DNA from: Flaccisagitta enflata | Taxonomy: Eukaryota | NCBI GenBank assembly: GCA_965153355.1 | Contig: OZ231126.1 | Span: 40,362,001 to 40,426,000 of the forward strand | Direction: 5' to 3' | DNA length: 64,000 nucleotides | Part shown: positions 3,778-27,208 of the stretch, piece after piece | Layout: the number at the start of each line of letters is the position of its first letter | Numbering within the stretch: the first letter of the stretch is position 1 | Made by a program: the position numbers and the translations under genes | Notes under the pieces: model-generated | What the model was told of the DNA's origin: nothing | What the model saw: the letters and a program-made list of their open reading frames with translations, nothing else | Database searches by the model: none

Positions 3778-3873
<96 letters not shown>

Positions 3874-4536: not shown

Positions 4537-4613
<77 letters not shown>

Positions 4614-4970: not shown

Positions 4971-5052
<82 letters not shown>

Positions 5053-5059
5053 TATATAT

Positions 5060-5114
<55 letters not shown>

Positions 5115-5130
5115 TATATACATATATATA

Positions 5131-5218
<88 letters not shown>

Positions 5219-6880: not shown

Positions 6881-6965
6881 GATGTAGAAGTAAAAAGAAA
6901 AGTAGAAAACTGCCGAAAAATGTCACCTACATGCCTACCTTAAGACTTACCGACAAAAATGTCAA

Positions 6966-7217: not shown

Positions 7218-7662
7218 ACTTTTGCATACGGAAGAGAGAAACGGGTTCTAGTCACACTCACTCATTGGGAAACCAACATATGTTTTTGATTGTCCGAGTC
7301 GGCAAAGAATTTTGACAGCATAGAAAAATGAAAACTCGGTTATTTGATCGTTTCATTAGCATCTTAAGTTTGGCAATGTAGTTTGTCTCGGCAAACTATA
7401 CCATCTCGAAGAAAACGAAACAAGCTAAAACTAAACAAGGCCGGATACACGGCCATCAGTTGCAGACGGGTGAGCAGGGGCGGAAATGCAACTGTCCGCA
7501 ACTAAAAATGTTCTAAAACGCTCATTTCCTCACTTTTCGACTCGTGTCCACGGACCAACCAACCAACCGACCAACCAACCAACCAACGGACCGACCGGAC
7601 GGACAAAGCCTCTTATAGAGTTGCGTGTCTGCAACTAAAAAGATGGTTATGTATGTGTTTAC

Positions 7663-7860
7663 CTATTTCTTTTACAGCCAGACAGACAAAAAACGGCTTA
7701 ACAATATTTACAAAATCGGAAAGCAATTTAGCCAACAGCAAGTGGCCACTTGGGTATTTACAAAACCCATTAAGTTGTTGTAAATGGACATTTCGGCTAC
7801 GATTTGTATCGGAGAGACACCGGGCTCTTACTCTTAGATACCGGCCAGGAATTCTAAAGT
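7663..7860 (-). CDS. Putative internal coding exon (198 bp, phase 1-1) of an unidentified gene
   Basis: (CT)n-CCAG acceptor and AG|GTAAAC donor. Length is a multiple of 3 with one open frame (FRIPGRYLRVRARC...VKEI). No recognisable domain. Confidence 0.3.
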
Positions 7861-7861
7861 C

Positions 7862-7948
<87 letters not shown>

Positions 7949-8040
7949 GAGAGAGAAGAGACAGACAGACAGATCAGACAGACAGAGAGACCGACAGAGA
8001 GACAGACAGACAGAGACGAAGACAGACAGACAGACAGACC

Positions 8041-8085
<45 letters not shown>

Positions 8086-9115
8086 GGCAGAGACAGACAG
8101 GCAGAGACACAGACAGACTGACACAGAGACAGACAGACAGACACAAACAGATAAACATACAGAGCGAGAGGGAAAGGAATATATAGAAACATAACTCGAA
8201 ATCGCCCCGTTTACGAGTTTTTGGAAATACTATTTGCATCAGAATTTCGACCAATGTTGGAGTGACCTCCTTCAATTATTGTTGCCCATTTCCTTTTAGA
8301 GGCACTTGGTCAGGGCCGGTTCTCCAAAAGCCTCATCTCGTGTGTCTGTCCGGTCTTCGTCTGTCTTCGGCCGGTCCGTATGTCTGTCCTTCTGTTTCTT
8401 GTAGCACTATTCATTCCTAGAACTCATTTAATCAACTTTGAAGTCCTTCAGAGCGTGTCCAAATTTTTCTTGTTGTAAAAAGTGTAGAGTCTAAAAGCAG
8501 ATGGCTGATGAAAATTGATCCGATAAATATCGGATTAATAAATATCGGATTAAATCCCATTCGAACGAGATTCATGAGTTCCAGATACAGTATGTTTTTT
8601 CTGCAATGCACCAAAAGAAACCTATATATCTCTGCTCCTGAGCATCGTAGCCAGATGCGGATTGCACCATTGGAAAGAGCGCCAAAAACTATTTTAAATA
8701 CGTTTTTTTCTGATATTTATATCCATCATAAAATTACCTTGCCACACCGCCACCGGGTAGACAGACAGTGAGATAGGCAGACAGACAAGCAGGCAGACAG
8801 ACAGACAGACTCAAAGATAAATTTAAAGACAAACAGGTGGACTGATTCCTCCTGTAATAACAAGGCAAAGACCAGCCCATAAATTGAGACATGCGGGAAA
8901 CCAATGCTGACATGAAAAGCCACGACCAGACAAAGACAGACAAACAGACAGACAAATAGATAGATAAAAAGATAAACTGACAGACCGACACAAACAAAAA
9001 GACAAACAGCTGGACAGATTCCTCCTGAAATAACAAGACAAAGACCAGCCCATAAATTGAGACAGGCCGCAAACCAAAGCTGACGTACAAAGCCATATCC
9101 AGACAAAGACAGAGA

Positions 9116-9350
9116 GGGCGTGTTTCTAGTGAAGACGAAAAACGCGTTTGTTCCCGTGAAACGCGATAACAGTGTGAACACATGTTAAAGAATTTAGTTT
9201 GTCGCGAGTGGCCGAAGTAGTGAAGCGAAAGCCCGTGAACAGGCGAAGCGAGCGAAGCAGCAATATGGCGAAGCGCTGCGGCGGTAGCGGGAAGTGGCGA
9301 TACGGCAACGGGCAACGTAGTGAGCGACCGAGTGGCCCTTTCAAAACGCG
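9116..9350 (+). mobile_element. Truncated MITE of the GGGCGTGTTTCTAGT family, flanked by a 28-bp direct duplication
   Basis: Left terminus intact, right terminus missing. AAAGCCATATCCAGACAAAGACAGAGAG at 9089-9116 and 9351-9378. Confidence 0.7.
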
Positions 9351-11517
9351 AAAGCCATATCCAGACAAAGACAGAGAGTCTGGGAAAGATTCTAGGTTGA
9401 CGTGATATACGGCAACCTTCCCACCAAAAAAGGAATATTTCGTAATGACGTCCGGGGATGTCGGCTGTGAGGAGGAAGAGGAAGAGGAGAGTGAAGAGGA
9501 GGAGGAGAAGGAAGAGTATAACAAGTAGGAGGAGGTGAAGGAAGAGGAGAAACCTCGTAATGTACAACGAACAATTACATAAAAACGCCCATAAATCCTG
9601 GCAAGTATGACTACTGCTACTATTGTGTAAGCCGCCTCCGTCTCCTGTCTCCGCTGCCGCCACCACCGCCGCCGCCGCTGCCGCCACCTCTGCCGCTTCC
9701 GTCGCCGCCGCCACCGCCGCCTCTGCCGCTTCCGTCGCCGCTGCCGCCATCGTTGTTTCTGCGGCCGCCTTCTCCACTGTCACCTGTCGCCACCATCACT
9801 ATCACCGTCACCGTTTCCGCAACCACCCATTATCAAGGAGAAACCCATGTTTATCATCTATTTTCTTTTTCTCGTATCTATGAGTAGCTGTTTTTTTTTA
9901 CTCCTGTCGGTTTTTTTTTTTTTTTTGGCATTTCACCTTTTGCAATAATTTTTGCGCCTGTGTCTCTTTTATGTGCGTCCTTACACATCTATAAGTGGAT
10001 AATTCTGTCTTCGGTTGGTTGGTTGATCGGTCTGTCTTTTGGTTTTTCAAGCAGACGTCGAAATCTGGCAACACTGCCGAATTTGGCTGTTTTCTTTGTT
10101 CCTGTAACCAAACATGCCCTCCGGCTTTTATTTTCTTTCAGTCGTTCATTCATATTTGCATTCATTTATTCATTAAAAACGTTCATTCATTAAAAACATT
10201 TAGTCATTGGTAAAGGTTTTTTTAACAGAAACGCTCATGCATACATTCTTAATCAGCGAGGCGCACATATTGGCCATAACTTGGCCTTGTTCCCTAAATA
10301 AACTTAATTCCTAAACTCAACCAAAAATGACATTGCGGCCATGATTTCGTGTCTATTTTCATATTTAGGTCTACTTCTCGACCCCCCCCCCCTCCCCTTC
10401 GCGACCTTTGTTCCTTCCTGCCTGCTCTTGTCATTATTCTTACGTTAAGGTCTGTTATTCTGCCATCTACAACCAGGTCTTGACTTTTACTTGCTTGATA
10501 TTGCCCATATTTTTTTCTGGTGGTACTTTTCCTCTGCGCCTTCGCCATCCCCGCAATTTCTAGGCGTTCTACTACATTCCATTTTCGTTCAATTCTTAAT
10601 CCATTTCTCTCTAATTTCCTAGCGTTATGTTAGGCTGTTTATGTCGGCTCGTCTACATCGATCGTTGAAAATGCATAAACAAGGCCAACACATCTAAGTC
10701 GCGTGCGGTCGTCAAGACTAAAAGTCTAAAAGTTGAAATGTAAAATTACTTAAAATGACTTAGTATGACGTAAAACAGCATAAAAACTAAGCAAACCCGA
10801 TAGACGGATCGACAGACAGACGGACCGACAGATGGACTGAGCGGGTCATAGAGTCACGTGCACGCGACTAAAAAGGATTGCCTAGCCTAATTCTCACGTG
10901 CTGTTCAAAAACATCGAAATCTAAAACTTGTTGTCGCTTTGTCTTTCTGTCTTTCTGTCCCGCTATCCCACCATCTCTCTGTCTATATGTTTTGCTGTCA
11001 TTTTAATACCTTGGTATGAATCTTTCAACTTTTTCCTGTCTTGGTCTGCCTCTCTGGCAGCCCATCTCATTTTCGTCATCATTTCCTCTTTTTTGCATTA
11101 GGGCTGCAATCTATCTCTGTCTCTGTCTCTGTCTCTGTCTCTGTCTCTGTCTTTGTCTCTATCCCTATCTCTGTCTCACCTGAGATTTGGGGTTGCATCT
11201 GCAGTAAGGCCTCCCAAGACATAGGCTGTGACAACAGCTGTCTGTCTCTGTCTCTGTCTCCGTCTTTATCTCTATCCCTGTCTCTCTGTCTCTCTATCTC
11301 TGTCTCTGTCTCCATCTCACCTGGGATTTGGGGTCGCATTTGCAGTAAGGCCTTCCGGGACATAGGCTGTAACAACAGCTGTTTATTTCTGTCTCTGTCT
11401 CTGTCTCTGTCTCCATTTCAGTCTCTGTCTCTATCCCTGTCTCCATTTCAGTCTCTGTCTCTATCCCTGTCTCTCTGTCTCTCTGTCTCTCTGTTTCTGT
11501 CTCTGTCTCCATCTCAC

Positions 11518-11652
11518 CTGGGATTTGGGGTCGCATTTGCAGTAAGGCCTTCCGGGGCATGGGCTGCAGTCGATGTTGTCTTCAGGGAGTGCCATCGGGG
11601 ACAAAGGCACGGAGCACAGAAGCAAACAAAAGAGCAACAAACTGAATGACAT
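11518..11652 (-). CDS. Putative first coding exon: signal peptide plus Cys-rich N-terminal cap (LRR-NT-like)
   Basis: ACAATG start. Reads MSFSLLLFCLLLCSVPLSPMALPEDNIDCSPCPGRPYCKCDPKSQ (45 codons), ending at a CAG|GTGAGA donor. Confidence 0.45.
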
Positions 11653-12137
11653 TGTTAACCCGCCGCCGCCGCTGCCACCGCCGCCGCCGCCGCTGCCGCC
11701 ACCGCTACCACCACCGCTACCACCACCACCATGTGTACGCCATCTTTGTCCTCGTTGCTGTCTTCCCTTTCGACTTTTCTGTAGCCATTTGTGTTGTCTA
11801 TGTTGTTTTTGTCCTTGTTGTTGTTGTTGTTGATGTTGTTTTTGTTGATGTTTTGGTATGATCAGGGCCAAAGGTGCCGTAGGCGTGATTATCGTTAGAC
11901 AATTACGGGGGCGGCGGGAAAGATTTCCGACTGTTGATGAAAACGAGGAGGCGGAGGCGGAAAAGGGGGAAGAGGAGGAGGAGGAGGAGGAGGAGGCGGA
12001 GGTGGAAAAGGGGGACGAGGAGGAGGCGGAGGAGGAGGAGGCCGGGGATGGCGATGACACGGAAAAGGGAGGGGAGGATGCTGGGGAGCGGAAGGTCGGA
12101 TAAGCGTCGTTCCCCAAATGAGCCTTAGGAAGACACC

Positions 12138-12900
12138 GCGATGGTGTCACGGAGGACGCTACAGTAGGAACCCCCGAGGAGCGTGGCGAGGAGAAGGGGG
12201 AGACTGAAGTTGAGGAGAGGGGATGGGCGACTATGGGAGAGTCTGAGTTTGAGGAAAAGGAGGAGAAGGAATGGGAAAGTATGGGGGCGCGATCGCTGAT
12301 ATTTCCTCTTTTTTCCAGCGACATATTCTCTTGGCTATTTTTTTCACATGATGAAAGCAAACTTATACTTAGATGTCGAATTAGATTTTTGAAGAGAGAG
12401 GCATCTGTGTGCATGCACGTATGTGGCCTATCTAAGTTTTTTTCTTCTTTTTTTTAGATTCTTGTGCAGCTGTGTATTTTATATTTCTCAAGTTCTTGTA
12501 CTCTCTCGATTTCAATTCGTTTTTTGTCGCGATGGTGTAACGGAGGGTGCTACAGTAGGAACCCCCGAGGAGCGTGGCGAGGAGAAGGGGGAGACTGAGG
12601 TTGAGGAGAAGGGATGAGCGACTATGGGAGAGTCTGAGCTTGAGGAGAAGGAGAAGGAAAGGGAAAGTATGGGGGCGCGATCGCTGATATTTCCTCTTTT
12701 TTCCAGCGACATATTCTCTTGGCTATTTTTTTCACGTGATGAGGGTTAACTTATATTTAGATGTCGAATTTGATTTTTTGAAGAGAGAAGCGTCTGTGTG
12801 CATGCACGTATGTGGCCTATCTAACTTTTTTTAGATTCTTGTGCAGCTGTGTATTTTATATCCTTCAAATTCTGGTACTCTCTCGATTTCAATTCGTTTT
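12138..12900. repeat. Tandem duplication of ~390 bp (12138-12520 and 12528-12900)
   Basis: CGCGATGGTGT..GTAGGAACCCCCGAGGAGCGTGGCGAGGAG through TTTCAATTCGTTTTTT occurs twice. Confidence 0.9.
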
Positions 12901-12959
12901 TTTTTTTCATCTTCAACGTCGTTATCCAGTCTGGGGGTTGGGTCTTTTCGCGTATTTAT

Positions 12960-13212
12960 GGGCGTGTTTCTAGTGAGCGCCAAAAAAACGTTTGTTCCCG
13001 CGAAACGCGGTGCGGTATGAACATATTCAGAATTTATTTGTCCACGAGGTGGCGGTAAGTGAAGGCGACCCCCGTGAAGACGGAGCGAGCGGCGAGCAGC
13101 TGTGCAGCGAGCTGGCTGGGCGAGTGAGCGAGGGTGAGCGGTGCAGCGAGACAGACATGCGCGCGACCGAGTGGCCCGTTCAAAACGCGATCGTCTTTGA
13201 CTAGAAACGCCC
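12960..13212 (+). mobile_element. Complete MITE with terminal inverted repeats
   Basis: GGGCGTGTTTCTAGT ... ACTAGAAACGCCC. Confidence 0.7.
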
Positions 13213-14275
13213 CCTATGGCCCAAAGGCGTTGGTGTTTACATCGTTGCCAGTGTTGTCGTTTCCTTTGAGGTTGTCGTTTCTTTTTTGAGGTTGTCGCGA
13301 TCACGTTCTTCACTCGTTTTTTTTCACTCGTTTCTTTACGTTTTGTTGATCCCCATTCTTCGTTTATTTCCCTTCCGTTCTTTTCCCCACTTTTTTTTCA
13401 TTCTCTTTTTTTTTTTTTTTTTGCGCTTTTCTCTCTCTTATTTTCGTTTCTGTTTTTTTTCCCCTTTGTTTCTCATTTATTACTTCTTCTCTTCTCAAGG
13501 TGGAAACTCTTCTTCTTCTTCTTTTTCGCTTTTTCCCATTTTCAATTCCATCACACGTTTTTCCATTTTCACTTTCTATTCTCCTTCTTTCTTTATTTTT
13601 CTTTTATTTGTTCATTGTCTTTTCCACATTTTTTTGTTCTCTTTGCCTTTTTACTCCTTTACGTGTTTTCCTCGTTGGCCATTATCTGGGAAAGAGAGAG
13701 AGATGCAATCATGTGAATATTATTTTCCTCCATTTCTCACTTTTCCACTTCCCCTCTTTTTAGTCGCGTGCTACGCGACTCTATACCCCGCTTTGTCCGT
13801 CCGTTGGTCGGTTGGTCAAGTCAGTTGATTAGTTGGTTGGTTGGTTGGTCGGTCACATTTTTACTTTTTTATGTTTTTGTGGTCTTTAGCTTCCTCTGCT
13901 CCTTGCCAAATGCTTTGTGCAACTCAAATACTGCCCCTGCCCACCCGCACGCGACTGAGGTAGCCGTGTATCCGGCCTTGTACCCCTCTTTTTCACCGTT
14001 GTAGACTCTCTCTACATGTCAAAGTGTTCCAGTTGGCATCGAGTCTTACTTAGAAAAGTACCAAAATCTTTAGATCTCCTCGGCGAAATTGTTACTGTTT
14101 TATGTAAGAACTAAGGCCTTGCGGGTCTGGCCGTGAAAAGGCCAAAGCTCGGTTTTGAGGCCAAACCCAAAATTCAGTTTTGACTACAAACCTTACTTTG
14201 TTCTCTGGCTTTTTTTTTTGCCTCTATTTTTTTAATTTATTCTTTTATGCGCGTTTGTGCGTGCGTGTCTGCACA

Positions 14276-14385
<110 letters not shown>

Positions 14386-14670
14386 TCTCTATCTCTGAGA
14401 GAGTCATGAGATAATCGCAACATGAGTCCCACCATGAGTCCCAACATGAGTCTCACCATACTGCACTATCCCTTCCAGTATGAACACATCCACACTCAAA
14501 CTGCACCATTCCTTCCAGTATGAACACATTCGCCCTCATTCATCCATCTTTTTCTCTTGTCTATTTTTCCGTTTCTTTCTCTCTGCGATAATCACAACAT
14601 GATTCCCTCCGCGAAGTTCGAAATGGCCACTCACGGTGAAAAGCCCATCTATTCTCCCTTCCCCCTTTCC

Positions 14671-14729
<59 letters not shown>

Positions 14730-15813
14730 TTTTAAAAGGCAGAAACGCCATATCAGTCACAAACGTGATGCTTTGGTGCCGATTACCTTTTAGAGATTCT
14801 TTTTTGTGGTTATTGAAACGTAGCTTTTGTATGGTGATGAGATGGTGCCCTGGAGAATTAAAGGCATTAGTCAAAAAAGAATATTTGCCAAGTTTGTTAT
14901 TCAGTAAACAAGGCCAACACCTTGCAGTCGCGTGCGGTTGTCAAGACCATAAGACCAAAAGACTAAAAGACTAAAAGACTAAGAGACTAAATGTAAATTG
15001 AATCAAATTAACGCTAAATAACTCAAGATGACTTGAAATGACTTCAAATGGCGTAAAACGGCAAAATAAGCTAAGGGTTACGGACAGACCGACGGGCCGA
15101 CAGACGGACAGAGTGGGCTGTAGAGTCGCTTGCACGCGACTAGAAATGTTTATCAAACATGTACTTAATAAAAAAAAACTTGGCATTTGGTATTTTATCT
15201 TAATGTGGTCAATTTCTTTTGAACTATTACTATAACAGAATTCTACGGCCCGCTAACAAAGGGAGGGGGGTAACTTTAAAAGTAGCCACTGTACACTGTT
15301 CAGTTGAGCGTTGCAATGTTGACTATGTGATGACAAAGATCACGCGGAAGGGTTTTTGTATGTTTTGTAAGAGTGATACTCAAGCAAACTGAGACACTGT
15401 CTTGTTTCATAGCGTTTGTTATGTATTTTTTTTTTCTTGTGACCCTCTGTGTATAGCTCAGAATGGAGTCTTAGGACACTGACTTGTTTCACAGCGTTTG
15501 TTACGTACTTTGTTGTTGTGAGGCGGAGACTGTGTTTAGCTCAGAATGATGTCTGAGAAAAGGCTGGAAAGAAAAAAAAAAAAAAAAGAATGAGATGTGG
15601 CGTTTCCAATAGACCAATATTACCAATAATATTGATATGAAAGGAGGCCAGTCAGACAAACTAAGATTAAGATCAATTTATGTCTATTGCTACAGAAAGA
15701 AAAAGCTCCATCGTGCTTTCTTGATAGCTATAATTTAAACTTTAAACTTTAAACTCATGAGAATGATTAGAAGGACGACATAAAGAAGGAGTTGATGGGA
15801 TTTGCACTTGCCG

Positions 15814-18533
15814 TCACAAATCTTTATCACCGTTGGTGACATCGTCACCCCCTTCTTTCACCTCCTCATCATCGCTCTTCTTGGGGTAAGTCCGTCCATG
15901 GAGAATGGTAGCGTGTTGTTTGTTGCAAATTTGGCATGTTGGTCGATTGGCACATCCCTTTGCCGAGTGCCCGACGTTGAGACAGTGAAAACAGAGTCGA
16001 CGGGATGCCAATTTTTGGACTCTATCGTCGACATCAAGTACGAGGAGCTGATGGCACTCCTCCGTCGCGTGATTGTCATTGCAGACGTTGCAGCATTCCG
16101 TCAACGATGCTCGAGTTTTGTTGCCGCACGCTGCCGCTACTACCACTGCTGCAGATTCTCTTTCCACTCCTTTGCTGCGTTGGATGATTGCCCATGTCTC
16201 AATCATATCGACGAGATGGTCAAAGGAGAAGGAGATGCCCTTGACGAACGATTCATGGTGTTTTCCCAGAACTTGTCCGCCAGGTGAGGAACTCTATTAT
16301 TGATAATTTGCTGCAAGAGTTCATTTCTGTAGCAATGGTACAATTCTCCACATGTATGCGCGATCTTCTTTGCCTTTAACAGCACTGATGCGAGATGGAA
16401 ATGTCCGTCATGGTCAGCAGATTGAATCCTCGGCTTTGCGACGATTTTGTTGAAGAGATCCGGGATGTTGCTGCGATTTGCCACAAAGAGTAGGTCCATC
16501 TTCTTGAAGGCAACATTCAACTCCTCCTCGGCGCTCTCTTCCGTTGCTCCAATCATCGCCGTTTCAACGATTTCTTTGGCCGGACCAGAAAACCATTTAG
16601 GTAATTCTGAGAGAATGTCCATCCGCGTCAGTCCATCGTGTTTTGCAGAGTCTTTGAACTTTCGTTTCCACATCATATAATCAGTAGATGAAAGATTTTG
16701 CAGAGGCTTATTTGGTCTATCTCTCTCCATTGTTCTCAGACCAACCTCCCTCGCTCGCATGAGGTTATCGTAAGACGCTCTTTTTAAAAAAGCTTCGATG
16801 GCGTCGCTCTGAGGCTGCAGATTCACCACTTCCGGTTGACGAGCAGTTTGGCGAGCCAGATGATTCGTCTGTTGGCGTCTTCTCAAATCTTGGATTTCCA
16901 TATAAACTGCTCGCAATTCCGAGTCCTTCTGTCGAATCTGCAGCTGCTGCGCCGCATTCTCTTCCATCAATTGGGCAGCATTTTGCTGTAGATGATGCAG
17001 TTGACGATCAGCTTCAGGGTGCGCCGTCCCTAGGGTTGCAGATGGCGCGAGCTGTGGATGCGTCCGCCGCTCATTCGCCTCGTCCGCTACCCCTTGGTCG
17101 TCTTCTCTTCCAGCTGTCTTCTCTGCTTCGTCATTTGCTGTTATCATTGATGCATCAGACTCTGCATCGCTGTCTTTAGGCTGTGGCTGTTGCCCAACAT
17201 CCACATTGATGTATCCACTATTGAGGGGTTCGTAATTTGCTGTAAGAGGATGAGCAGTTATCACAGGAGCAATCACGGAATTTTGTTGCTGCAGATGTTG
17301 CTGATGGAGCCGCTGCTGATGTTGAATGCGTGTCCTTTCTTGTTCTTGCTGTTGCTGTTGCTCTTCAGCCTCTTGCTGTTGCAATTGAATCCGCTGTTGT
17401 TGACGTGACTGCTCTTGCAATTGACGTTGTTGAAGCAGCTGCTCCTGCTGTTGGTGTAGCTGCTCCTGCCGTAGCCTTTGTTGCTCGGCAGCCTGTTGCT
17501 GTTGAGATATTTGCTCTTGCTGCTGTTTTTTATACGCTGCAGCTTGCTGTTGTCGCTGTAGTTGCTCCTGCTGCTGTTGCTGTTGCAACAGCTCCGACTG
17601 CTGCGACTGCCCGTGTTGGAGTTGTGGCTGTCTTCGCACCGGCTGCATATGCTGCGATTGCTGCTCTCGGCGTTGCTCTTGGCACTGCTCCGGCTGCCAC
17701 CGTTGCTGCTGCTGCTCCTGCTCCAGACGCCACTCCTCACGTTGCTGTCGCTGCAGATTCATTGCCATCTCTTCCTCCTGCATACCCTCTTCTTCCTCTC
17801 TTCCTCCACCGCCTTTCTCTGCCTCCTCTCTCGTCGCCGCACCATTCATGACGCTGCTTTTGACGGTTTTGGCGAGTGTCTCGGCGTCGACGAGATTGTC
17901 CAATGTATCATCATGGATGTTTACGCGCGAGCTATAGTCCGAATGAATCTGTGACATCCACTGATCGATAGAGTCTCTTAATATAATGGGCGAATTTGGA
18001 GGCGATTGTCCATTTGGCAATTGAGGAGAAAGGACGCATTTTTGATTGACGCAATTTTGTCTTGTTGGGGTACAAAAATGAGGATGTTGGTTATTCCCAC
18101 TATGTCTTCCGTGCGCGTGGACGCGATGTCAGAGAGATGGAAAACCCTCTTGATAATTCTCGAGGTCGAAGAAACGCATTGCGTACCATTGGCGTCGGAG
18201 GCGCCGCAGACTCGACGCCGCGAAACGAAGAGGGTCGCCTGGCAGTTTGTCCGTTGCCATTTGGCAAGCAAAAATGATGTAGTCATTCACCATATCACGA
18301 AAGCAGTGTCTAGCTGCGTCGGATTCCACCGTCGCATCTTCCCACTCGTTGGTGTCCACTACAGTCACTGCAACGGCGTTAAACAGTTGTTGACATCGCC
18401 CCATTTCACGTTTTAATTCGTCCTTCATACCACACAATGTATCTGTCCTCGGACATTGATTCAAACCGAAGAAGGACGCACGAGAGGACGTTGATGCGTT
18501 CGATTGATTATCGTCGCCATTAGTCGCCGCCAT
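15814..18533 (-). pseudogene. gag: BEL/Pao-type LTR-retrotransposon gag (Gln-rich linker, C-terminal triple zinc knuckle); one in-frame TGA (18129-18131), one frameshift (~16260); no pol follows
   Basis: CNVCNDNHATEEC...RVQKLASRRLCFHCLNVGHSAKGC...CQICNKQHATILH matches the BEL/Pao Gag knuckle arrangement. ORFs 18129-18533 and 16203-18020 are in the same frame. A shift at TGGGAAAAC gives ..GISFSFDHLVDMIETW, joining ORF 15814-16206. Confidence 0.85.
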
Positions 18534-18611
18534 GTCGACGAAATCGCCGCCGGGGGGTCGGGAAAAGTCGTAAGGGATGAGTCGATTTAAAATTGTTGAA
18601 ATATAATCTAC

Positions 18612-19140
18612 GTAAGTTTTATAGACGCGTCTTTGCTTTTAGTAACGTTGTTTTTATCTTGTTCTCCGGTCTGTTATTCTTGTTTTTTGCATTGTTGCAT
18701 TTTTATCTCCGGATTTTAGTATGGTTTTTAACGTTTGTCCGATCAGCTAACTATGGGGATGATATGGATGAATTTAATGGGACGGGCCGGGGCAGGGGCA
18801 GGTATTATCAGGTGGCATGGGCTCTGAAGAAGATGAACATGTTGTCATGTGCTGTTTCTGTCCTTTATTGTGTCCTGTCTCGATTTCATGTTATCTTTTG
18901 CGTTTGCTGATCATCATTAACGCCCACTTTCCCTTTTATTTTATCCCCTCTCTCAGTTGTTGAAATTTTTATGGAATAAACGAGACGGTCACCTTCCTAT
19001 TTTCCAAAAAAAAAAAAAAAAAAAAAAAAGGAAGCTAAAATTCTTTTATTTGCTTAATTAAAATAAACTTATGAACGGACAAATAACGTTAGTTTGACAT
19101 CGACAGACTGTGGGTGAAACCAACGAAAGTGGGCCTAAAA
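18612..19140 (+). other. Inverted cDNA-like insertion: intron (18612-18956), terminal exon with AATAAA, A24 tail (19006-19029), 33-bp unknown segment and 78-bp exon (19063-19140)
   Basis: 18612-19007 is the reverse complement of 19263-19658, and 19063-19140 of 19659-19736. Flanked by the direct repeat TAAAATTGTTGAAATATAATCTACG (18588-18612 and 19136-19160). Confidence 0.85.
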
Positions 19141-19141
19141 T

Positions 19142-19312
19142 TGTTGAAATATAATCTACGCCCACGATTGTTGAAATATAATCTACGCCCACGAGTTTCA
19201 ACTGGCACTGTCCATGGGCAACTAGCTGACTGACGACTTGTGGTGAAAGAAAGGTGGCCGAATTGGAAAATAGGAAGGTGACCGTCTCGTTTATTCCATA
19301 AAAATTTCAACA
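19142..19312 (-). mobile_element. Candidate short 5' LTR of the BEL/Pao element
   Basis: Minus strand reads TGTTGAAAT...ATTTCAACA (9-bp terminal inverted repeat, TG..CA) and contains AATAAA and a 27-bp tandem duplication. It would end 60 bp upstream of the gag ATG if the insertion is removed. No canonical TGG PBS and no 3' LTR seen. Confidence 0.45.
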
Positions 19313-19738
19313 ACTGAGAGAGGGGATAAAATAAAAGGGAAAGTGGGCGTTAATGATGATCAGCAAACGCAAAAGATAACATGAAATCGAGACAGGACAC
19401 AATAAAGGACAGAAACAGCACATGACAACATGTTCATCTTCTTCAGAGCCCATGCCACCTGATAATACCTGCCCCTGCCCCGGCCCGTCCCATTAAATTC
19501 ATCCATATCATCCCCATAGTTAGCTGATCGGACAAACGTTAAAAACCATACTAAAATCCGGAGATAAAAACGCAAAAATGCAAAAAACAAGAATAACAGA
19601 CCGGAGAACAAGATAAAAACAACGTTACTAAAAGCAAAGACGCGTCTATAAAACTTACTTTTAGGCCCACTTTCGTTGGTTTCACCCACAGTCTGTCGAT
19701 GTCAAACTAACGTTATTTGTCCGTTCATAAGTTTATCT
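19263..19738 (-). other. Exon (19736-19659), GT-AG intron (19658-19314) and terminal exon with poly(A) signal of an apparently non-coding or UTR transcript
   Basis: TTTTTATTGCAG acceptor, GTAAGT donor, pyrimidine tract + CTCTCAG acceptor, AATAAA. The neighbouring inverted copy is polyadenylated 25 nt after this AATAAA. Confidence 0.65.
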
Positions 19739-20090
19739 GCAATAAAAAGATGAGAGATTATTGAAATTAGTAAATTCCAAGGGCACATTCAATCAATCAC
19801 GAAAAATCAATCAATCACTTTAGGAAGCAATGCCGTAAATAAATAAAAACAATCAATCCAAAATTGGATGATACGAAGACGAGTTACGTATGTTTGTTTA
19901 CGTAATAAAAACAAATGGCATAAAATACAAGGCGCAACCATATGGTTACCACTAACCATTATGAAAAAAATGGCGAGAGAGCAAAAAAGACACCGACATT
20001 GAATAATAAGAAAGAGAAAAGAAGCCAAAAAGCACGCAAAAGAAACAAAAGCACACACACTTAACAGACGGACGAACATACATTTCTAAC

Positions 20091-23000
20091 ACCTTCAATC
20101 TAAAGTTTGGAGGGGGTACTGCCAGATTGAAGGGGGTTCTGCTGGGATAGTTCCCCAACTTTGTATTCAAGTTTTTATAGCTCTCTTCTTATGTTGATAA
20201 GAGGTACTGCCAGATTGAAGGGGGTACTGCTGGGATAGTTCCTCAACATATTAACCAGCTTTATATGCCTCAACTCTTACATTAGAAGGGGGTACTGCCA
20301 GATTGAAGGGGGTACTGCTAGGATAGTTCCCCAAATTTGTAATTAGGTTTTTATACCTTCAAGCAAATGTTTTAAGGGGGTACTGCCAGATTGAAGGGGG
20401 TACTGCTGGGATAGTTCCCCAACATATTAATCAGCTTTATGTGCCTAAACTCTTACATTTGAAGGGGGTACTGCCAGATTGAAGAGGGTACTGCTGGGAT
20501 AGTTCCCCAACTTTGTAATCAGGTTTTTATAGCTCCACTCTTATGTTGATAAGGGGTACTGCCAGATTGAAGGGGGTACTGCTGGGATAGTTCCCCAGCT
20601 TTTTAATCAGTTTTTCAAGACTTCAATCTCGTGTTTGAAGGGGGTACTGCCAGATTGAAGGGGGTACTGCTGAGATAGTTCCCCAACTTTTTAATCAGTT
20701 TTTCAAGCCTTCAATCTAAGTTTGGATGGGGTACTGCCAGATTGAAGGGGGTACTGCTGGGATAGTTTCCCAACTTTTTAATCAGTTTCTCAAGACTTCA
20801 ATCTAAAGTTTGGAGGGGGTACTGCCAGATTGAAGGGGGTACTGCTGAGATAGTTCCCCAACTTTTTAATCAGTTTTTCCAGCCTTCAGTCTAAGTTTGG
20901 ATGGGGTACTGCCAGATTGAAGGGGGTACTGCTGGGATAGTTTCCCAACTTTTTAATCAGTTTTTAATCAGTTCAATCTAAAGTTTGGAGGGGGTACTGC
21001 CAGATTGAAGGGGGTACTGCTGGGATAGTTCCCCAACTTTGTATTCAGGATTTTATAGCTCCACTCTTATGTTGATAAGGGGTACTGCCAGATTGAAGGG
21101 GGTACTGCTGGGATAGTTCCCCAACTTTTTATTCAGTTTTTCAAGCCTTCAATCTAAAGTTTGGAGGGGGTACTGCCAGATTGAAGGGGGTACTGCTGGG
21201 ATAGTTCCCCAACTTTGTATTCAGGTTTTTATAGCTCTCTTCTTATATTGATAAGGGGTACTGCCAGATTGAAGGGGGTACTGCTGGGATAGTTCCCCAA
21301 CATATTAACCAGCTTTATATGCCTTAACTCTTACAGTAGAAGGGGGTACTGCCAGATTGAAGGGGGTACTGCTAGGATAGTTCCCCAAATTTGTAATTAG
21401 GTTTTTGTACCTTCAAGCAAAAGTTTTTAGGGGTACTGCCAGATTGAAGGGGGTACTGCTGAGATAGTTCCCGAACTTTTTAATCAGTTTTTCAAGACTT
21501 CAATCTCGTGTTTGAAGGGGGTACTGCTAGATTGAAGGGGGTACTGCTGGGATAGTTCCCCAGCTTTTTAATCAGTTTTTCAAGCCTTCAATCTCGTGTT
21601 TGAAGGGGGTACTGCCAGATTGAAGGGGGTACTGCTGGGATAGTTCCCCAACTTTGTATTCAGGTTTTTATAGCTCCACTCTTATGTTGACAAGGGGTAC
21701 TGCCAGAGTGAAGGGGGTACTGCTGGGATAGTTCCCCAGCTCTTTAATCAGTTTTTCAATACTTCAATCTCATGTTTGAAGGGGGTACTGCCAGATTGAA
21801 GGGGGTACTGCTGGGATAGTTCCCCAACTTTTTATTCAGTTTTTCAAGCCTTCAATCTAAAGTTTGGAGGGGGTACTGCCAGATTGAAGAGAATTTACTG
21901 CTGGGATAGTTCCCCAACTTTGTATTCAAGTTTTTATAGCTCTCTTCTTATATTGATAAAGAAGATGCCTGCCAGATTGAAGGAAATTTACTGCTGGGAT
22001 ATTTCTAACATATTAACCAACTATATGCCTCAACTCTTAAATTAGAAGGAGGTACTGCCAATTACCATGTTCTACCTTTTCATTTGAAGAGGATAGTTCC
22101 CCAAATTTGTAATCAGGTTTTATACCTTCAAGCAAATGTTTTAAGGGTACCAGATTGAAGGGGTACTGCTAGGATAGTTTCCCAAAATATTAATCAGCTT
22201 TATGTGCCTAAACTCTTACATTTGAAGGGGGTACTGCCAGATTGAAGGGGGTACTGCTGGGATAGTTCCCCAACTTTGTATTCAGGTTTTTATAGCTCCA
22301 CTCTTATGTTGATAAGGGGTACTGCCAGATTGAAGGGGGTACTGCTGGGATAGTTCCCCAGCTTTTTAATCAGTTTTTCAAGACTTCAATCTCGTGTTTG
22401 AAGGGGGTACTGCCAGATTGAAGGGGGTACTGCTGGGATAGTTCCCCAACTTTTTAATCAGTTTTTCAAGCCTTCAATCTAAAGTTTGGAGGGGGTACTG
22501 CCAGATTGAAGGGGGTACTGCTGGGATAGTTCCCCAACTTTGTATTCAGGTTTTTATAGCTCCATTCTTATGTTGATAAGGGGTACTGCCAGATTCAAGG
22601 GGGTACTGCTGGGATAGTTCCCCAGCTTTGTAATCAGTTTTTTCAGATATCAATCTCCTGTTTGAAGGGGGTACTGCCAGATTGAAGGGGGTACTGCTGG
22701 GATAGTTCCCTAACTTTTTATTCAGTTTTTCAAGCTTTCAATCTCGTTTTTGAATGGGGTACTGCCAGATTGAGGGGGGTACTGCTGGGATAGTTCCCCA
22801 ACTTTGCATTCGGGTTTTTTTAGCTCCACTCTTATAATTTTAAGGGGTACTGCCAGATTGAAGGGGGTACTGCTGGAATAGTTCCCCAACTTTTTAATCA
22901 GTATTTTAAGCCTTCAATCTAAAGTTTGGAGAGGGTACTGCCAGATTGAAGGGGGTACTGCTGGGATAGTTCCCCAGCTTTTTAATCAGTTTTTCAAGCC

Positions 23001-25051
23001 TTCAATCTTGTGTTTGAAGGGGGTACTGCCAGATTGAAGGGGGTACTGCTGAGATAGTTCCCCAACTTTTTCATCAGTTTTTAAAGCTTTCAATCTAAGT
23101 TTAGATGGGGTACTGCCATTTTGAAGGGGGTACTGCTGGGATAGTTCCCCAACTTTTTAATCAGTTTTTCAAGCCTTCAATCTAAGTTTAGATTGGGTAC
23201 TGCCATATTGAAGGGGGTACTGCTGGGATAGTTTCCCAACTTTTTAATCAGTTTTTCAAGCCTTCAATCTAAAGTTTGGAGGGGGTACTGCCAGATTGAA
23301 GGGGGTACTGCTGGGATAGTTCCCCAACTTTGTATTCAGGTTTTTATAGCTCCACTTTTATGTTGATAAGGGGTACTGCTAGATTGAAGGGGGTACTGCT
23401 GGGATAGTTCCCCAGCTTTTTAATCAGTTTTTCAAGCCTTCAATCTCGTGTTTGAAGGGGGTACTGCCAGATTGAAGGGGGTACTGCTGGGATAGTTCCC
23501 CAACTTTGTATTCAGGTTTTTATAGCTCCACTCTTATGTTGACAAGGGGTACTGCCAGAGTGAAGGGGGTACTGCTGGGATAGTTCCCCAGCTCTTTAAT
23601 CAGTTTTTCAATACTTCAATCTCATGTTTGAAGGGGGTACTGCCAGATTGAAGGGGGTACTGCTGGGATAGTTCCCCAACTTTTTATTCAGTTTTTCAAG
23701 CCTTCAATCTAAAGTTTGGAGGGGGTACTGCCAGATTGAAGGGGGTACTGCTGGGATAGTTCCCCAACTTTGTATTCAAGTTTTTATAGCTCTCTTCTTA
23801 TATTGATAAGGGGTACTGCCAGATTGAAGGGGGTACTGCTGGGATATTTCCCCAACATATTAACCAGCTTTATATGCCTCAACTCTTACATTAGAAGGGG
23901 GTACTGCCAGATTGAAGGGGGTACTGCTGGGATAATTCCCCAACATATTAATCAGCTTTATGTGCCTAAACTCTTTCATTTGAAGGGGGTACTGCCAGAT
24001 TGAAGGGGGTACTGCTGGGATAGTTCCCCAACTTTGTATTCAGGATTTTTTAGTTCCACTCTTATGTTTATATGGGGTACTGCCAGATTCCAGGGGTTAC
24101 TGCTGGGATAGTTCCCCAGCTTTTTAATCAGTTTTTCAAGACTTCAATCTTGTGTTTGAAGGGGGTACTGCCAGATTGAAGGGGGTACTGCTGAGATAGT
24201 TCCCCAACTTTTTAATCAGTTTTTCAAGCCTTCAATCTAAAGTTTGGAGGGGGTACTGCCAGATTGAAGGGGGTACTGCTGGGATAGTTCCCCAACTTTG
24301 TATTCAGGTTTTTATAGCTCCACTCTTATGTTGATAAGGGGTACTGCCAGATTGAAGGGGGTACTGCTGGGATAGTTCCCCAGCTTTTTAATCAGTTTTT
24401 CAAGCCTTCAATCTCGTGTTTGAAGGGGGTACTGCCAGATTGAAGGGGGTACTGCTGAGATAGTTCCCCAACTTTTTAATCAGTTTTTCAAGCCTTCAAT
24501 CTAAGTTTGGATGGGGTACTGCCAGATTGAAGGGGGTACTGCTGGGATAGTTCCCCAACTTTGTATTCAGGTTTTCAAAGCTCCACTCTTATGTTGTTAA
24601 AGGGTACTGCCAGATTGAAGGGGGTACTGCTGGGATAGTTCCCTACTTATTTGAACACTTTGAAACCTCTCTTTTTATTGATGCACTTAATGAACATTAT
24701 CATTTTGTACAATGACTGTTTTTGGTTGTTCATGCAATATGAGGAGGGTACTGCCAGATTTACAAGGGTACTGCTGGTTTGATTCCCCATGTATTCTAAA
24801 GGGGTACTGCCAAACAGACTAGGTACTGCTGGGATCGTTCCCTAATATATAAAAGGGTACTGCCAAGTTGAAGAGGTACTGCCAGGATAGTTCCCCATTA
24901 TAACATGGGGTACTGCCAGATTTAAGGGGGTACTGCCAGGATCATTCCCCAAAGAGAAGACTGGGGTACTGCTGCGGGTACTGCCAAGATATATCCCCAC
25001 TTTTTCCCATTTTTTTTACAAGGGGGTACTGGAGGCCAGGGGTACTGCCAA
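20091..25051. repeat. 88-bp satellite array (about 50 units) with conserved 47-bp core and ~41-bp variant segment; higher-order organisation, degenerate right end
   Basis: Core GGGGTACTGCCAGATTGAAGGGGGTACTGCTGGGATAGTTCCCCAAC at ~20113, 20201, 20289 and onward. Five to seven recurring, mutually alignable variant segments. Confidence 0.97.
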
Positions 25052-26252: not shown

Positions 26253-26567
26253 GTGAGATCACGCCACAGCAAGTGGGGGACAGATTTGAAGTCTGGAGGG
26301 CATATATGAAGCGTGGAGAGCTGATTGGAGGCCTGGAGGGCTGACTCGGGGCTAAATTTTGGCTGGGAGGCTTAATTGAGCGCCTGAGAGTGCTGTTTTT
26401 AGGCCTGGATGACCACCAGGGGACGGGGCGGATGGACGGGAGGTCGGACAGATGGATGGATAGACGGATGGACAAATGGACAGACATAGCGGGGTGTAGA
26501 GTCAGGTAGCATGCAACTAAAAATCACAACTTAGCATTCACTGTTCCGTGATTTTCCCATCTTGAAG

Positions 26568-27208
26568 CTCCTTTTGGCAATTGCGTGGATGAGTTTCCAG
26601 AGTGTCTTCGCGTGAACATGCCACGAATTCAAGCTTACAATTACACCATGGATTCGTGCATTGCAGCCTCGAAGGATAAATTGGACATGCCTTTAAAGTG
26701 GGCGAAATGGCAACCGCAAAACACCTCTTCGAGCGAGGACAACGACTATGGAGAAGATGAAGACAACAGCTACAACGACAGCGACGAAGACAACAACGAC
26801 AACGACAGCAGCAACGAAAACGACAACGACAACGTCATCGACAATGACAACAAAGACAAAGAGGAGAAAAAACGCCGTCGCATAAAAATTGACTACCATA
26901 AGCTGTGTCCTCCAGCATGCGTCCAGCAAGTCTTCAAACCCACGACAGCTTCGGGCAATGACATGGAAAATGGAAGGAAAGATTCCTTTTCCTTGCAAAT
27001 TTTCAACGTTGATTTCGAGACGACGATTGTGCAGCAGCTTCCGGCCACTGGACCGGAAGAAGTGTTGGGCACTGTTGGCGGACTTTTGGGACTCATGATC
27101 GGCGCCTCAGTTTTGTCCGTTTTAGAAATGGTTGAGATGATGATGCGACTGATTTTCGCGATGGCTGGCAAGTTGAAAGCGAAAGCTGCCAAGATAGCAC
27201 CTAGTTAG
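26568..27208 (+). CDS. DEG/ENaC/ASIC-family sodium channel, terminal exon (thumb remnant, TM2 with GAS belt)
   Basis: CCCATCTTGAAG acceptor in matching phase gives LK|APFGNC (cf. PPPYGDC). Also YTMDSC, CPPAC and VLGTVGGLLGLMIGASVLSVLEMVE (TM2/GAS motif). TAG at 27206-27208. Confidence 0.92.

Follow-up and report, generated by a model that had tools for sequence, protein, structure and literature searches.

A circularly permuted copy of a trans-spliced, polyadenylated transcript inside a multi-copy Gag-like element of Flaccisagitta enflata

Introduction

By which route can the parts of one transcript be written back into DNA in permuted order, next to the unit that encodes them? This question is raised by a locus of Flaccisagitta enflata that we analysed within the whole 64-kb stretch of DNA presented here (the window). 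On the minus strand, a unit made of an exon B, a 345-nt intron and an exon C lies beside an inverted version of itself, in which the order is intron, exon C, an A-run, a 33-nt segment X and exon B. The first-pass annotation of this DNA had proposed that this second version was reverse transcribed from a partly spliced RNA opened at the 5' splice site, joined by a template jump and integrated in cis.

Results

The insert is a permuted copy of the neighbouring unit

Every element of the anatomy described by the first-pass annotation was found base for base at its position. The source unit reads as follows:

19738-19737, minus strand: AG of the source acceptor TTGCAG, upstream of exon B
19736-19659, minus strand: source exon B, 78 nt, where the acceptor is used for spliced-leader (SL) trans-splicing
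19658-19314, minus strand: source intron, 345 nt, starting GTAAGT and ending CTCTCAG
19313-19263, minus strand: source exon C, with AATAAA at 19295-19290
19265-19263, minus strand: source cleavage/poly(A) site

The intron signals are canonical and conserved in the three family copies aligned (the window, L001 and L002). In the source intron, a TTAAC branch-like motif lies 37 nt ahead of the AG, and a pyrimidine tract leads to the final CAG. The acceptor TTGCAG is also kept in 3/3 copies, and the 3' two-thirds of the intron is nearly invariant among them. Neither the B|C nor the SL1|B joint was listed for the contigs of runs X1, X3, X14 and X17, which are too short or end at the repeat and can therefore miss such a joint. 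Unspliced RNA appears in two metatranscriptome contigs, X14 record 15 spanning B|intron and X14 record 10 spanning intron|C plus the poly(A) site, both of which could be DNA carry-over.

On the opposite strand, the insert and its borders are arranged as follows:

18588-18612, plus strand: DR1, left direct repeat (target-site duplication), whose last G is also intron base 1
18612-18956, plus strand: copy of the whole 345-nt intron from its first base, the reverse complement of 19658-19314 with 2 mismatches
18957-19005/7, plus strand: exon C copy up to the cleavage site, with AATAAA at 18975-18980; 18957-19005 is identical to the reverse complement of 19313-19265
19006-19029, plus strand: A24 tail, not in the source; its first two A are possibly genomic AA
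19030-19062, plus strand: SL1, the earlier 33-nt X, complete from its first G
19063-19140, plus strand: exon B copy, 78/78 against the reverse complement of 19736-19659
19136-19160, plus strand: DR2, right direct repeat, whose first 5 bases are the last 5 of exon B
19140-19194, plus strand: tandem duplication of the target motif, 27 nt x 2.0 (TRF and alignment), single in the other family copies

The insert is a unit-length, circularly permuted copy of the source in the order intron, exon C, A24, SL1, exon B, and the net gain at the locus is 548 bp (18613-19160). Its first base, the intron G, is common to the end of DR1 and its last five, TAAAA, are common to DR2; these two ends, intron base 1 and the last base of B, are adjacent in the source, and no base is missing or doubled. 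In the arm formed by intron and exon C, 394/396 bases match, the two mismatches being at 18694 and 18699. The exon B copy opens at the first base after the acceptor AG and runs to the last base of the exon. The tail starts 25-27 nt past AATAAA, where the source reads AATTCGG, and it is the sole A/T run of at least 18 nt within the 64-kb window.

Chance is excluded as the origin of the 33-nt segment and of the flanking repeat, considering that shuffles predict 0.00 matches of the segment in the window, where there is 1, and 0.02 matches of a 20-mer of the repeat, where there are 3. The distance from the source poly(A) site (19263) is 102 nt to DR2 and 122 nt to the exon B copy, shorter than the spacing of about 150 bp first given. 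The four-junction arrangement is known from the assembly alone, as public contigs of 4 runs are too short to span any junction.

Two features set the insert apart from usual retrocopies. Introns are commonly removed and the order is colinear with the mRNA, while here the 345-nt intron is kept and the order is permuted. Moreover, the poly(A) is internal and exon B, not the A-tail, abuts DR2, unlike in ordinary target-primed insertions.

The 33-nt segment is the spliced leader SL1

The segment X is identical at 33/33 positions to the chaetognath SL1 (Table 3 in PMC2481426) once alignment gaps are removed, in keeping with the arrow-worm origin of the window, and this sequence occurs once within the 64 kb. 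The X|B junction is therefore a trans-splice junction, and X is not, as had been supposed, a cis exon to be found upstream on the minus strand followed by GT: it is the leader added in trans. In the source, the sequence upstream of B consists of TTGCAG and unrelated sequence, matching X at 15/26 bases. We also considered X as a diverged copy of that upstream sequence and rejected it, since the 104-nt inverted match is made of 78 exact bases of B plus 15/26 in AT-rich sequence.

Searching the region with Rfam (E up to 1) and for tRNAs gave 0 matches, indicating that an SL RNA gene, a snoRNA or a SINE head is absent from it, and SL1 had 0 matches in viral contigs. SL1 is supplied by SL RNA genes elsewhere and not by an upstream cis exon; in Spadella, SL RNA genes sit in 5S clusters (PMC2566580).

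The presence of SL1 at the acceptor of B, together with an A24 that has no counterpart in the source, means that the insert derives from RNA, and places the earlier reading of a reverse-transcribed copy on firmer ground. As in a retrocopy, the 5' end of the copied RNA is that of a mature RNA, a complete SL1 joined at the acceptor of B. The templating transcript is trans-spliced, polyadenylated and intron-containing.

The source unit belongs to a multi-copy element

The source locus is neither a single-copy gene nor an ordinary host gene. It forms the 5' region of an element that is present in many copies and has a decayed Gag-like ORF. Two further parts of this element were delimited:

19739-20091, minus strand: upstream part of the 5' region, outron or U3-like, with its boundary at 20091 (TGTTAGAAATG...), abutting a satellite
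15800-18533, minus strand: decayed Gag-like ORF, with ATG at 18533-18531, an in-frame stop at 18131-18129 and a frameshift near 16290

Alignment showed that homology between the window, L001 and L002 starts at 20091, with different flanks in all three. With TGTTAGAAAT at its start and ...ATTTCAACA at its putative end, the 5' region has an imperfect inverted terminus of the TG..CA type. The ORF is 99% identical to P0003, an 874-aa protein in which a CCHC knuckle is visible; Atlas clusters it with DUF1759/CCHC/Gag at 0.92, which has the level of a lead, and Pfam returned 0 families even at E=1.

The family is high-copy, with 3656 X1 contigs over 1951 nt, 2787 of them below 99% identity, a depth that is not readable as copy number. 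A blastn search of 18100-20120 against the window, covering 18.5 kb downstream, gave only the inverted copy, satellite edges and A-runs, and thus no second copy of the 5' region. The ORF list and Pfam revealed no pol frames in the window, nor was a tRNA-type primer site recognisable, so that none of the terminal direct repeat pair, primer-binding site and pol of an LTR element was seen in this possibly truncated copy. Likewise, Pfam found no reverse transcriptase gene among the 22 long frames of the window. Over these 22 frames/proteins only ASC was above its curated cut-off, at 26552-27208; a PT-repeat match at 7506-8186 stayed below threshold, scoring 16.6 bits where 26.2 are needed. Chaetognaths are reported to have LINEs (PMC12460157 and PMC2566580).

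The adjacent unit, or a near-identical one, was copied

We compared the insert with the available copies of the unit. It matches the adjacent unit at 472/474 bases, whereas L001 gave 454 matches, 19 mismatches and 3 gaps, and L002 gave 443 matches, 30 mismatches and 3 gaps, that is, differences at 22 and 33 positions. In addition, at 8/9 positions of the copied range where most of the X1 depth departs from the window, the insert has the minority base of the adjacent unit. These comparisons support a template transcribed from the adjacent unit or a near-identical one, in line with the source in cis first proposed. One of the two mismatches, at source position 19571, is private to the adjacent unit, and for this reason the RNA possibly came from a sister copy elsewhere. 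With 2 differences in 474 bases and perfect repeats, the insertion looks very recent.

The target motif resembles the spliced B|C junction

DR1 and DR2 are identical at 25/25 positions, as the first repeat inventory had it; what it missed is a third, 21-nt copy at 19167-19187, which makes up the 27-nt tandem duplication. The first 15 bases of DR2 equal the spliced B|C junction sequence, and this 15-mer, TAAAATTGTTGAAAT, occurs within the window only at 18588 and 19136. At the right joint, B continues into the target TTGTTGAAAT in register with a spliced B|C RNA. The identity to the spliced junction that had been pointed out is therefore real, but its 10-nt core, TTGTTGAAAT, is an ancestral feature of the family. 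In the window this 10-mer is confined to the start of exon C (source and copy) and to the copies of the target motif, and it belongs to the target motif of 3/3 family copies, meaning that the complementarity is older than the insertion. The extension from 10 to 15 nt is made of A/T bases only, and the identity reaches 13 nt in L001 and L002.

Complementarity between the target and the B|C junction probably guided the insertion. An RNA hairpin between the start of exon C and the end motif was found in both minimum-energy folds, which were no better than those of shuffles (z = 0.43 and -0.68), and it is given no weight here.

L1-type endonucleases prefer TTTT/AA. The bottom strand at the left edge of the insert is TTTT/AAAT, reading ...CAATTTT/AAATCGAC, and fits this preference.

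Following the suggestion to look for empty sites, we found the site empty in 4/4 other copies seen (L001, L002, X1 record 3 and X3 record 24), these copies being paralogues or coming from other populations rather than proven alleles.

Discussion

Proposed priming at the end of exon B and jump from leader to tail

We consider it likely that the insert is a very young retrocopy of the short 5' transcript of the host element, produced by priming at the end of exon B and by a jump from SL1 to the poly(A) tail. The RNA would have carried SL1 trans-spliced to the acceptor of B, would have been cleaved and polyadenylated 25-27 nt past AATAAA, and would have kept its 345-nt intron. The bottom strand would be nicked at 5'-...ATTTCAACAATTTT/AAATCGAC-3', some 100 nt past the poly(A) site of the source, and the freed 3' end could pair over 5 nt with the terminal AAAA of exon B. 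This pairing would reach 15 nt if the start of exon C were included, either in a spliced RNA or through a splint across the intron. The reverse transcriptase would then copy B and SL1 up to the first base of the RNA, jump end to end onto the poly(A) tail, copy exon C and the intron, and stop at intron base 1. A second nick 10-25 nt away, followed by fill-in, would generate the flanking repeat.

In the version that we tend to prefer, a single intron-retaining RNA would serve throughout, its own uncopied 3' part being the nearest acceptor for the jump. Synthesis would stop on meeting its own starting duplex, giving exactly one permuted unit. Together with the order of the steps and the use of one RNA rather than two, we infer here an enzyme of LINE type.

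The joint between A24 and SL1, tail to head, is best explained by a template jump, as the first-pass annotation had proposed. Template jumps of LINE reverse transcriptases producing chimeric retrocopies with flanking repeats are described in PMC2104539. The deduced RNA of 507 nt contains only three AAAA sites, one of which is formed by the last bases of exon B, so that a TTTT primer landing at the end of B is about a 1-in-3 event and not a 1-in-500 one. The single-molecule version leaves one observation unexplained unless a splint is assumed, namely the 10-base identity to the start of exon C beside the landing site.

Possible templates opened or joined by splicing

A less probable explanation, which we nevertheless take seriously, is that the two products of the first splicing step were the templates: a free SL1-B exon ending ...UAAAA-3'OH and a debranched intron-exon C-poly(A) molecule. 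The enzyme would have primed on the A-rich 3' end of the free exon, jumped to the tail of its partner and run off at intron base 1. The insert would then be a DNA fossil of stalled splicing, whose intermediates were reverse transcribed in succession at a nick beside their own gene. The conserved 10-15 nt complementarity between the end motif of the element and the B|C junction would have guided the process.

Both ends of the insert indeed coincide exactly with a 5' splice site of consensus form, AAA|GTAAGT, and if the enzyme ran off a genuine 5' end of an RNA, nothing more has to be assumed. Chimeric retrocopies typically contain a second template copied as far as its 5' end (PMC2104539). Both parts come from one local unit, as would fit RNAs held together at the transcription site, and a free exon ending in AAAA resembles a short A-tail for a TTTT primer.

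Splicing intermediates are, on the contrary, rare RNAs. A lariat branch blocks reverse transcriptases, while here the whole intron was copied with its TTAAC branch-like motif unchanged, and thus debranching has to be added as a further step. The availability of only three AAAA sites takes away most of the statistical weight of the splice-site coincidence, and the contigs of four runs, which can miss a B|C joint, bear no sign of intron splicing. Among the literature matches listed for retrocopies, neither lariats nor splicing intermediates were named. An RNA opened at the 5' splice site, as originally proposed, therefore fits both ends of the insert but is not required, given that one intron-retaining RNA yields the same permutation.

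Rather unlikely, in our view, is a related scheme with two RNAs, in which a spliced SL1-B-C molecule annealed by 15 nt would template SL1-B and the enzyme would jump to a second, intron-containing RNA starting at intron base 1. It accounts for the perfect match of the target to the spliced junction over 15 nt, which keeps the register of the joint. A nick anywhere from 18587|88 to 18602|03 would give the same product, and the true duplication may then be an ordinary one of 10-25 nt. This scheme still needs an RNA cleaved at the 5' splice site for the left end, and it requires two processing states of the RNA of one gene; the identity on which it relies is, past 10 nt, of A/T bases only and stops at 13 nt in L001 and L002.

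Improbable origins: particles, DNA-level capture and artefacts

The Gag-like nature of the host ORF (the CCHC knuckle of P0003 and the Atlas clustering) brings up a different and improbable origin, in which the block was made in a virus-like particle during replication of an LTR-type host element, before this copy integrated. The plus-strand DNA end would mis-prime on an SL1-B(-C) RNA packaged in the same particle, or would extend into a Tf1-like self-primer, before being transferred to the poly(A) end as in strong-stop transfer. The imperfect TG..CA-type terminus of the 5' region, the placement of the insert exactly at its putative end and the complementarity between exon C start and end motif, conserved in 3/3 copies, are in agreement with this, as is the fact that retroviral-type enzymes perform obligatory end-to-end transfers and microsimilarity switches (PMC5131818). 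That the conserved complementarity is itself a Tf1-like self-priming site of the element family seems very unlikely to us.

Against a particle origin stand the absence of a second 5' region within 18.5 kb downstream, of pol frames and of a recognisable tRNA-type primer site, as well as the lack of Pfam confirmation for Gag. The 25-nt duplication is also unlike such switches, and in Drosophila the retrocopies described in PMC5131818 replace internal sequence. Finally, the insert is probably younger than the host copy, since it shares 99.6% identity with its neighbour, whereas the host copy has decayed and diverged from P0003.

Scarcely more than marginal is the capture, at a DNA break, of a piece from ordinary retrocopies (SL1-B-intron-C-An) arranged in a tandem array or an extrachromosomal circle. 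Copies of the family are numerous (3656 X1 contigs), a circle or tandem array would yield a unit-length permuted piece, and circular LINE products are known in yeast, as stated in PMC3510499. On the other hand, the ordinary, non-retro form is found in 2/2 metagenome copies, the best-supported loose end of X1 at the poly(A) site consists of 14 contigs continuing into genomic sequence, and coincidence would have to account both for a break exactly at the 5' splice site and for a joint in register. As to a single crossover of a circle at TAAAA, it was discarded, considering that it would leave the other 20 nt unduplicated.

An assembly or library artefact, such as an inverted chimera formed during whole-genome amplification or repeats joined wrongly, would suit an inverted duplication near its source within a high-copy repeat and contigs too short to span the junctions, yet it is highly improbable, since neither amplification nor mis-assembly of genomic DNA can make a faultless SL1, place an A24 where the transcript is cleaved, or produce a perfect 25-nt flanking duplication. 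Twin priming is ruled out by the same orientation of both parts of the insert.

Comparison with known retrocopies

The retrocopy that we favour, primed at exon B and completed by a jump, has its closest parallel in the bipartite or tripartite LINE chimeric retrocopies of the Buzdin/Gogvadze type (PMC2104539). In both, two RNA stretches are fused directly between short flanking repeats (14 bp in the fungal case presented there), and the joint is attributed to a template switch of the reverse transcriptase. Unlike in these chimeras, both parts come here from one transcript unit and sum to exactly one permuted unit, the poly(A) is internal and joined to the 5' end of the leader, and priming would have taken place at the AAAA of B and not at the tail.

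Semi-processed retrocopies are poly(A)-tailed, keep an intron and are colinear with the mRNA; the insert shares with them the tail and the retained intron and differs by its permuted order.

A DNA-encoded 5' leader is also what proves the RNA origin of the SL-tagged retrogenes of dinoflagellates, as reported in PMC6050394, PMC5585692 and PMC12014239. The insert departs from them in that its leader is a metazoan SL1 and that a mobile element supplied the 5' transcript, which is non-coding and was copied with its intron and in permuted order. We found no metazoan SL-tagged retrocopy in the literature searched. In chaetognaths, processed pseudogenes bearing SL were only hypothesised, in a 2008 dispute on leader-primer PCR from DNA (PMC2566580).

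Pseudogenes derived from circRNA likewise have parts in an order that is not colinear with the gene, and carry an exon-exon back-splice junction (PMC4897178). The insert has instead an intron and the A24|SL1 joint. As this non-colinear joint connects a poly(A) tail to a capped leader, no back-splice can create it.

LTR-mediated retroposition, as outlined in PMC5131818, resembles our case by a retrocopy inside a Gag-bearing repeat and by similarity at the fusion point (5-15 nt at the right joint of the insert). There, the interior of the element between its two LTRs gives way to the retrocopy. The insert has replaced nothing, 25 nt were duplicated, the left joint shares 1 nt, and neither an LTR pair nor pol was found.

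Significance

The locus keeps in DNA, at single-base resolution, four marks of RNA processing: which acceptor was used, the leader in full, the place of cleavage and a tail of some 22-24 A. It also preserves a direct tail-to-head joint. The locus thereby documents, in nature and in vivo, that a reverse transcriptase went as far as the extreme 5' end of a spliced-leader RNA and continued at the 3' end of a poly(A); natural records of such a jump are rare. Within the literature searched, this is the first concrete genomic SL-tagged copy in a chaetognath, and possibly in any animal.

If the insert is a fossil of stalled splicing, the retrotransposition machinery can sample spliceosomal intermediates in cis. 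In trans-splicing animals, joints between an A-run and an SL provide a simple handle for genome-wide searches, from which the frequency of such jumps and the clustering of breaks at 5' splice sites could be read. The locus also flags a multi-copy Gag-like element with a trans-spliced 5' region and a conserved internal complementarity.

A permuted retrocopy carrying a spliced leader

Strand reading, a repeat finder and a base-by-base walk bore out the anatomy described in the first-pass annotation, namely a source unit on the minus strand and, between direct repeats, an inverted and permuted copy of it.

Source unit, insert and host ORF (position in the window, strand, feature)
19738-19737, minus: AG of the source acceptor, TTGCAG
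19736-19659, minus: source exon B, 78 nt
19658-19314, minus: predicted source intron, 345 nt, from GTAAGT to a pyrimidine tract and CAG
from 19313, minus: source exon C, with AATAAA at 19295-19290
18588-18612, plus: left direct repeat, 25 nt
18612-18956, plus: copy of the whole intron
18957-19005, plus: copy of exon C
19006-19029, plus: A24
19030-19062, plus: X
19063-19140, plus: copy of exon B
19136-19160, plus: right direct repeat, same 25 nt as the left
15800-18533, minus: decayed host ORF with ATG at 18533, broken by a stop in frame (18131-18129) and by a frameshift (near 16290)

The insert lies on the plus strand, 102 nt past the deduced cleavage site of the source, which it matches at 472 of 474 positions. 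The 25-nt repeat overlaps it by 1 base (G) on the left and 5 (TAAAA) on the right; an additional 21-nt copy of the repeat is found at 19167-19187, and TRF reported a 27-nt tandem duplication at 19140-19194. In the source intron, a branch-like TTAAC motif stands 37 nt before the AG. A24 is the sole A/T run of at least 18 in the 64-kb window. X, the block between A24 and the exon B copy, is present once (0.00 matches expected from shuffles of the window), while a 20-mer of the flanking repeat gave 3 matches (0.02 expected), and chance is excluded as the origin of either.

Results showed that X is "Form 1, SL1" in Table 3 of Marletaz et al. 2008 (33/33 after removing alignment gaps), this being the one paper among the full-text matches to fragments of X (PMC2481426). 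According to the accessible part of that paper, SL1 was recovered from Spadella cephaloptera and Flaccisagitta enflata and represents <1% of the leaders in S. cephaloptera. SL1 therefore identifies the window as chaetognath DNA, which agrees with the ASC frame at 26552-27208 and with the recurrence of the stretch among marine metagenome runs. Judged by sequence, the junction between X and exon B is a spliced-leader (SL) trans-splice junction at the acceptor of exon B. X is not encoded near source exon B, as the sequence upstream of that exon matches it at only 15/26 bases; Spadella SL genes are located in 5S clusters, according to an excerpt of PMC2566580. A complete leader, a tail (A24) added with correct spacing after AATAAA and flanking repeats free of mismatches jointly establish that the insert passed through RNA, so that the RNA origin claimed for it earlier is secure.

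The source unit belongs to a multi-copy, putatively Gag-like element

The stretch was found in many marine metagenome runs. A metagenome contig scan with the last 21 nt of exon B led to two contigs, L001 and L002, both with the source unit. In both and in the window (at 20091) the unit starts with TGTTAGAAATG, and the flanks are unrelated in all three. From this start, L001 and L002 contain about 350 nt of upstream sequence, TTGCAG, exon B, an intron from GTAAGT to CAG and exon C with AATAAA, followed by about 100 nt, one motif copy holding ATTTCAACAAT and the ATG of the ORF. Public contigs aligned to the stretch included 3656 pieces from sequencing run X1 (869 at >=99% identity, 1415 at 95-99% and 1372 at 90-95%) with many variants per site, showing that the source unit is a multi-copy family. 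The insert is absent from L001 and L002, and record 3 of X1 and record 24 of run X3 cross the left flank and continue as empty-site sequence; the insertion site is therefore empty in 4/4 other copies seen.

Compared with the X1 contigs, the insert shares the minority bases of the adjacent unit at 8/9 informative sites, in both of its parts, so its source is the local unit or a very close sister copy. The mismatch at 18694 is private to the insert, and that at 19571 to the adjacent unit, the insert's base being present there in every X1 contig as well as in L001 and L002.

The relatives of the host ORF are 7 unannotated proteins, from marine assemblies only, which form a Q-rich family ending in CCHC; the closest, P0003 (874 aa), is 99% identical, with a CCHC knuckle at its end. 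No Pfam domain was found in the ORF or its relatives, and the language-model neighbours, DUF1759/CCHC/Gag clusters (0.92), amount to no more than a lead. The host 5' region has an LTR-like look with TG...CA-type imperfect inverted ends, and downstream of it, in the window, we found neither a second 5'-region copy nor pol frames. From these sequence features the host appears to be a multi-copy element of Gag-like type and is only a putative LTR retrotransposon.

The 3' two-thirds of the predicted intron (19314-19560, minus; columns ~600-800 of alignment A1) are near-invariant among the window, L001 and L002, whose divergence is 4-7% across the unit and far greater in the ORF. Such uniformity is unusual within an intron, and a promoter, a structured RNA or recent homogenisation may lie behind it; an Rfam search of the region gave no match. 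In runs X14 and X17, from two RNA studies, 5'-region contigs over 18100-20050 are 10-15x deeper than ORF contigs and are unspliced at the B acceptor, the B-intron boundary and the intron-C boundary, meaning either that a short transcript of the 5' region is abundant, most of it without splicing, or that the libraries contain DNA.

Target motif and mechanism of insertion

Exon C opens with the ten bases TTGTTGAAAT, which also stand in the target motif; across the window the 10-mer is restricted to the exon C start (source and copy) and the motif copies. All three family copies (window, L001, L002) have it in their target motif, so the identity is older than the insertion. The 15-nt identity between target and spliced B-C junction noted previously holds as this 10-mer plus the adjoining TAAAA in the window, and spans 13 nt in L001 and L002. 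In read-through RNA the exon C start is able to pair with the motif, as it does in both minimum-energy folds; these are no more stable than shuffles, and nothing is drawn from them. The same bases form a 10-nt inverted repeat between the exon C start (19304-19313) and the end-of-5'-region motif (19141-19150, 19168-19177), conserved in L001 and L002 and resembling the element's first bases (TGTTAGAAAT); its possible roles, judged by sequence, are those of a terminal inverted repeat, of a hairpin that conceals the poly(A) signal or of a site for self-priming.

The insert has RNA sense on the plus strand, so the 3' end of the bottom strand at the right-hand repeat served as primer and was elongated towards the left; this geometry most likely reflects target-primed reverse transcription. 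At the repeat's left edge the bottom strand reads ...CAATTTT/AAATCGAC, and a nick would have fallen at TTTT/AA, with the other strand nicked 10-25 nt to the right and fill-in generating the flanking repeat. Exon B, then SL1 up to its first base, would have been copied first, followed by an end-to-end template jump from that base to the final A of a poly(A) tail, a kind of jump invoked for LINE-made chimeric retrocopies in the available text of PMC2104539. Exon C and the intron would come next, with a stop at intron base 1 and joining to the other target end by a 1-nt overlap. We regard this general scheme as probably correct; the mechanism is well constrained, not unique, and three versions differ in their templates.

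Tentatively, the sole template may have been a single trans-spliced, polyadenylated RNA that kept its intron. AAAA at the end of exon B would pair with the TTTT primer; since AAAA stands at only three sites of the 507-nt deduced RNA, two of which lie in or at SL1, landing there would be roughly a 1-in-3 event. At the cap, the RNA's own uncopied tail would be the closest free 3' end, and a halt at the starting duplex would leave precisely one unit, permuted. Among the RNA contigs of the family, X14 records 10 and 15 are unspliced, which may reflect DNA carry-over. The adjoining 10-nt identity is explained by the single template only if the primer also paired with the exon C start across the intron.

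The first-pass annotation had invoked the products of the first splicing step, a free 5' exon and an intron-exon C-poly(A) intermediate. This makes both insert ends true RNA ends, but it requires rare RNAs and debranching, and the intron copy is full with its branch-like motif unchanged; we consider this version slightly less likely than the single template. An unlikely version has spliced mRNA annealing by all 15 nt before a jump to RNA cleaved at the 5' splice site.

Mis-priming while an LTR-type host element replicated would agree with the insert's place where the 5' region ends and with the Gag-like ORF, but it is very unlikely given the duplication of 25 nt, the absence of paired LTRs and the apparent youth of the insert relative to its decayed host. 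That a fragment of a tandem or circular retrocopy array was captured is highly improbable, considering the ordinary form both of 2/2 metagenome copies and of the loose end with the best support at the poly(A) site. An artefact is scarcely credible: no spanning read was found among the public contigs aligned, but it could not produce SL1, A24 and a perfect repeat.

Other features of the window

An 88-bp satellite at 20095-24643 (51.7 copies, ~80% matching) abuts the 5' boundary of the Gag-like element (20091). The sole clear host gene signal found in the window is an exon-sized frame at 26552-27208 (plus) with an ASC (amiloride-sensitive sodium channel) domain (E = 1.3e-14). Two near-perfect foldbacks, at 47606-48184 (279-nt arms, 94%, 21-nt spacer) and 50783-51398 (299-nt arms, 89%, 18-nt spacer), share some similarity (inverted repeat I20) and are candidate foldback or MITE-like elements. 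Other inverted-repeat families (35696-38265; 45256-45367, 52633-53913 and 58248-58379) have arms of 100-190 nt, 87-99% complementary, scattered over 20 kb of this repeat-rich window.

Comparison with known retrocopies

Spliced-leader relics mark dinoflagellate retrogenes, as the accessible parts of three papers report (PMC6050394, PMC5585692, PMC12014239). Among the open-access literature matches listed, we found no metazoan SL-tagged retrogenes, no permuted or head-to-tail retrocopies, and neither lariats nor splicing intermediates paired with retrocopies. For chaetognaths, SL-bearing processed pseudogenes were merely proposed in a 2008 exchange, in the text available (PMC2566580). Circular RNAs are known to give rise to permuted retrocopies, whose back-splice junctions set the insert apart from them, as far as the accessible part of PMC4897178 goes. 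The insert is thus, at a single locus as assembled, a template-switch retrocopy that is unit-length, permuted, SL-tagged and placed beside its own source.
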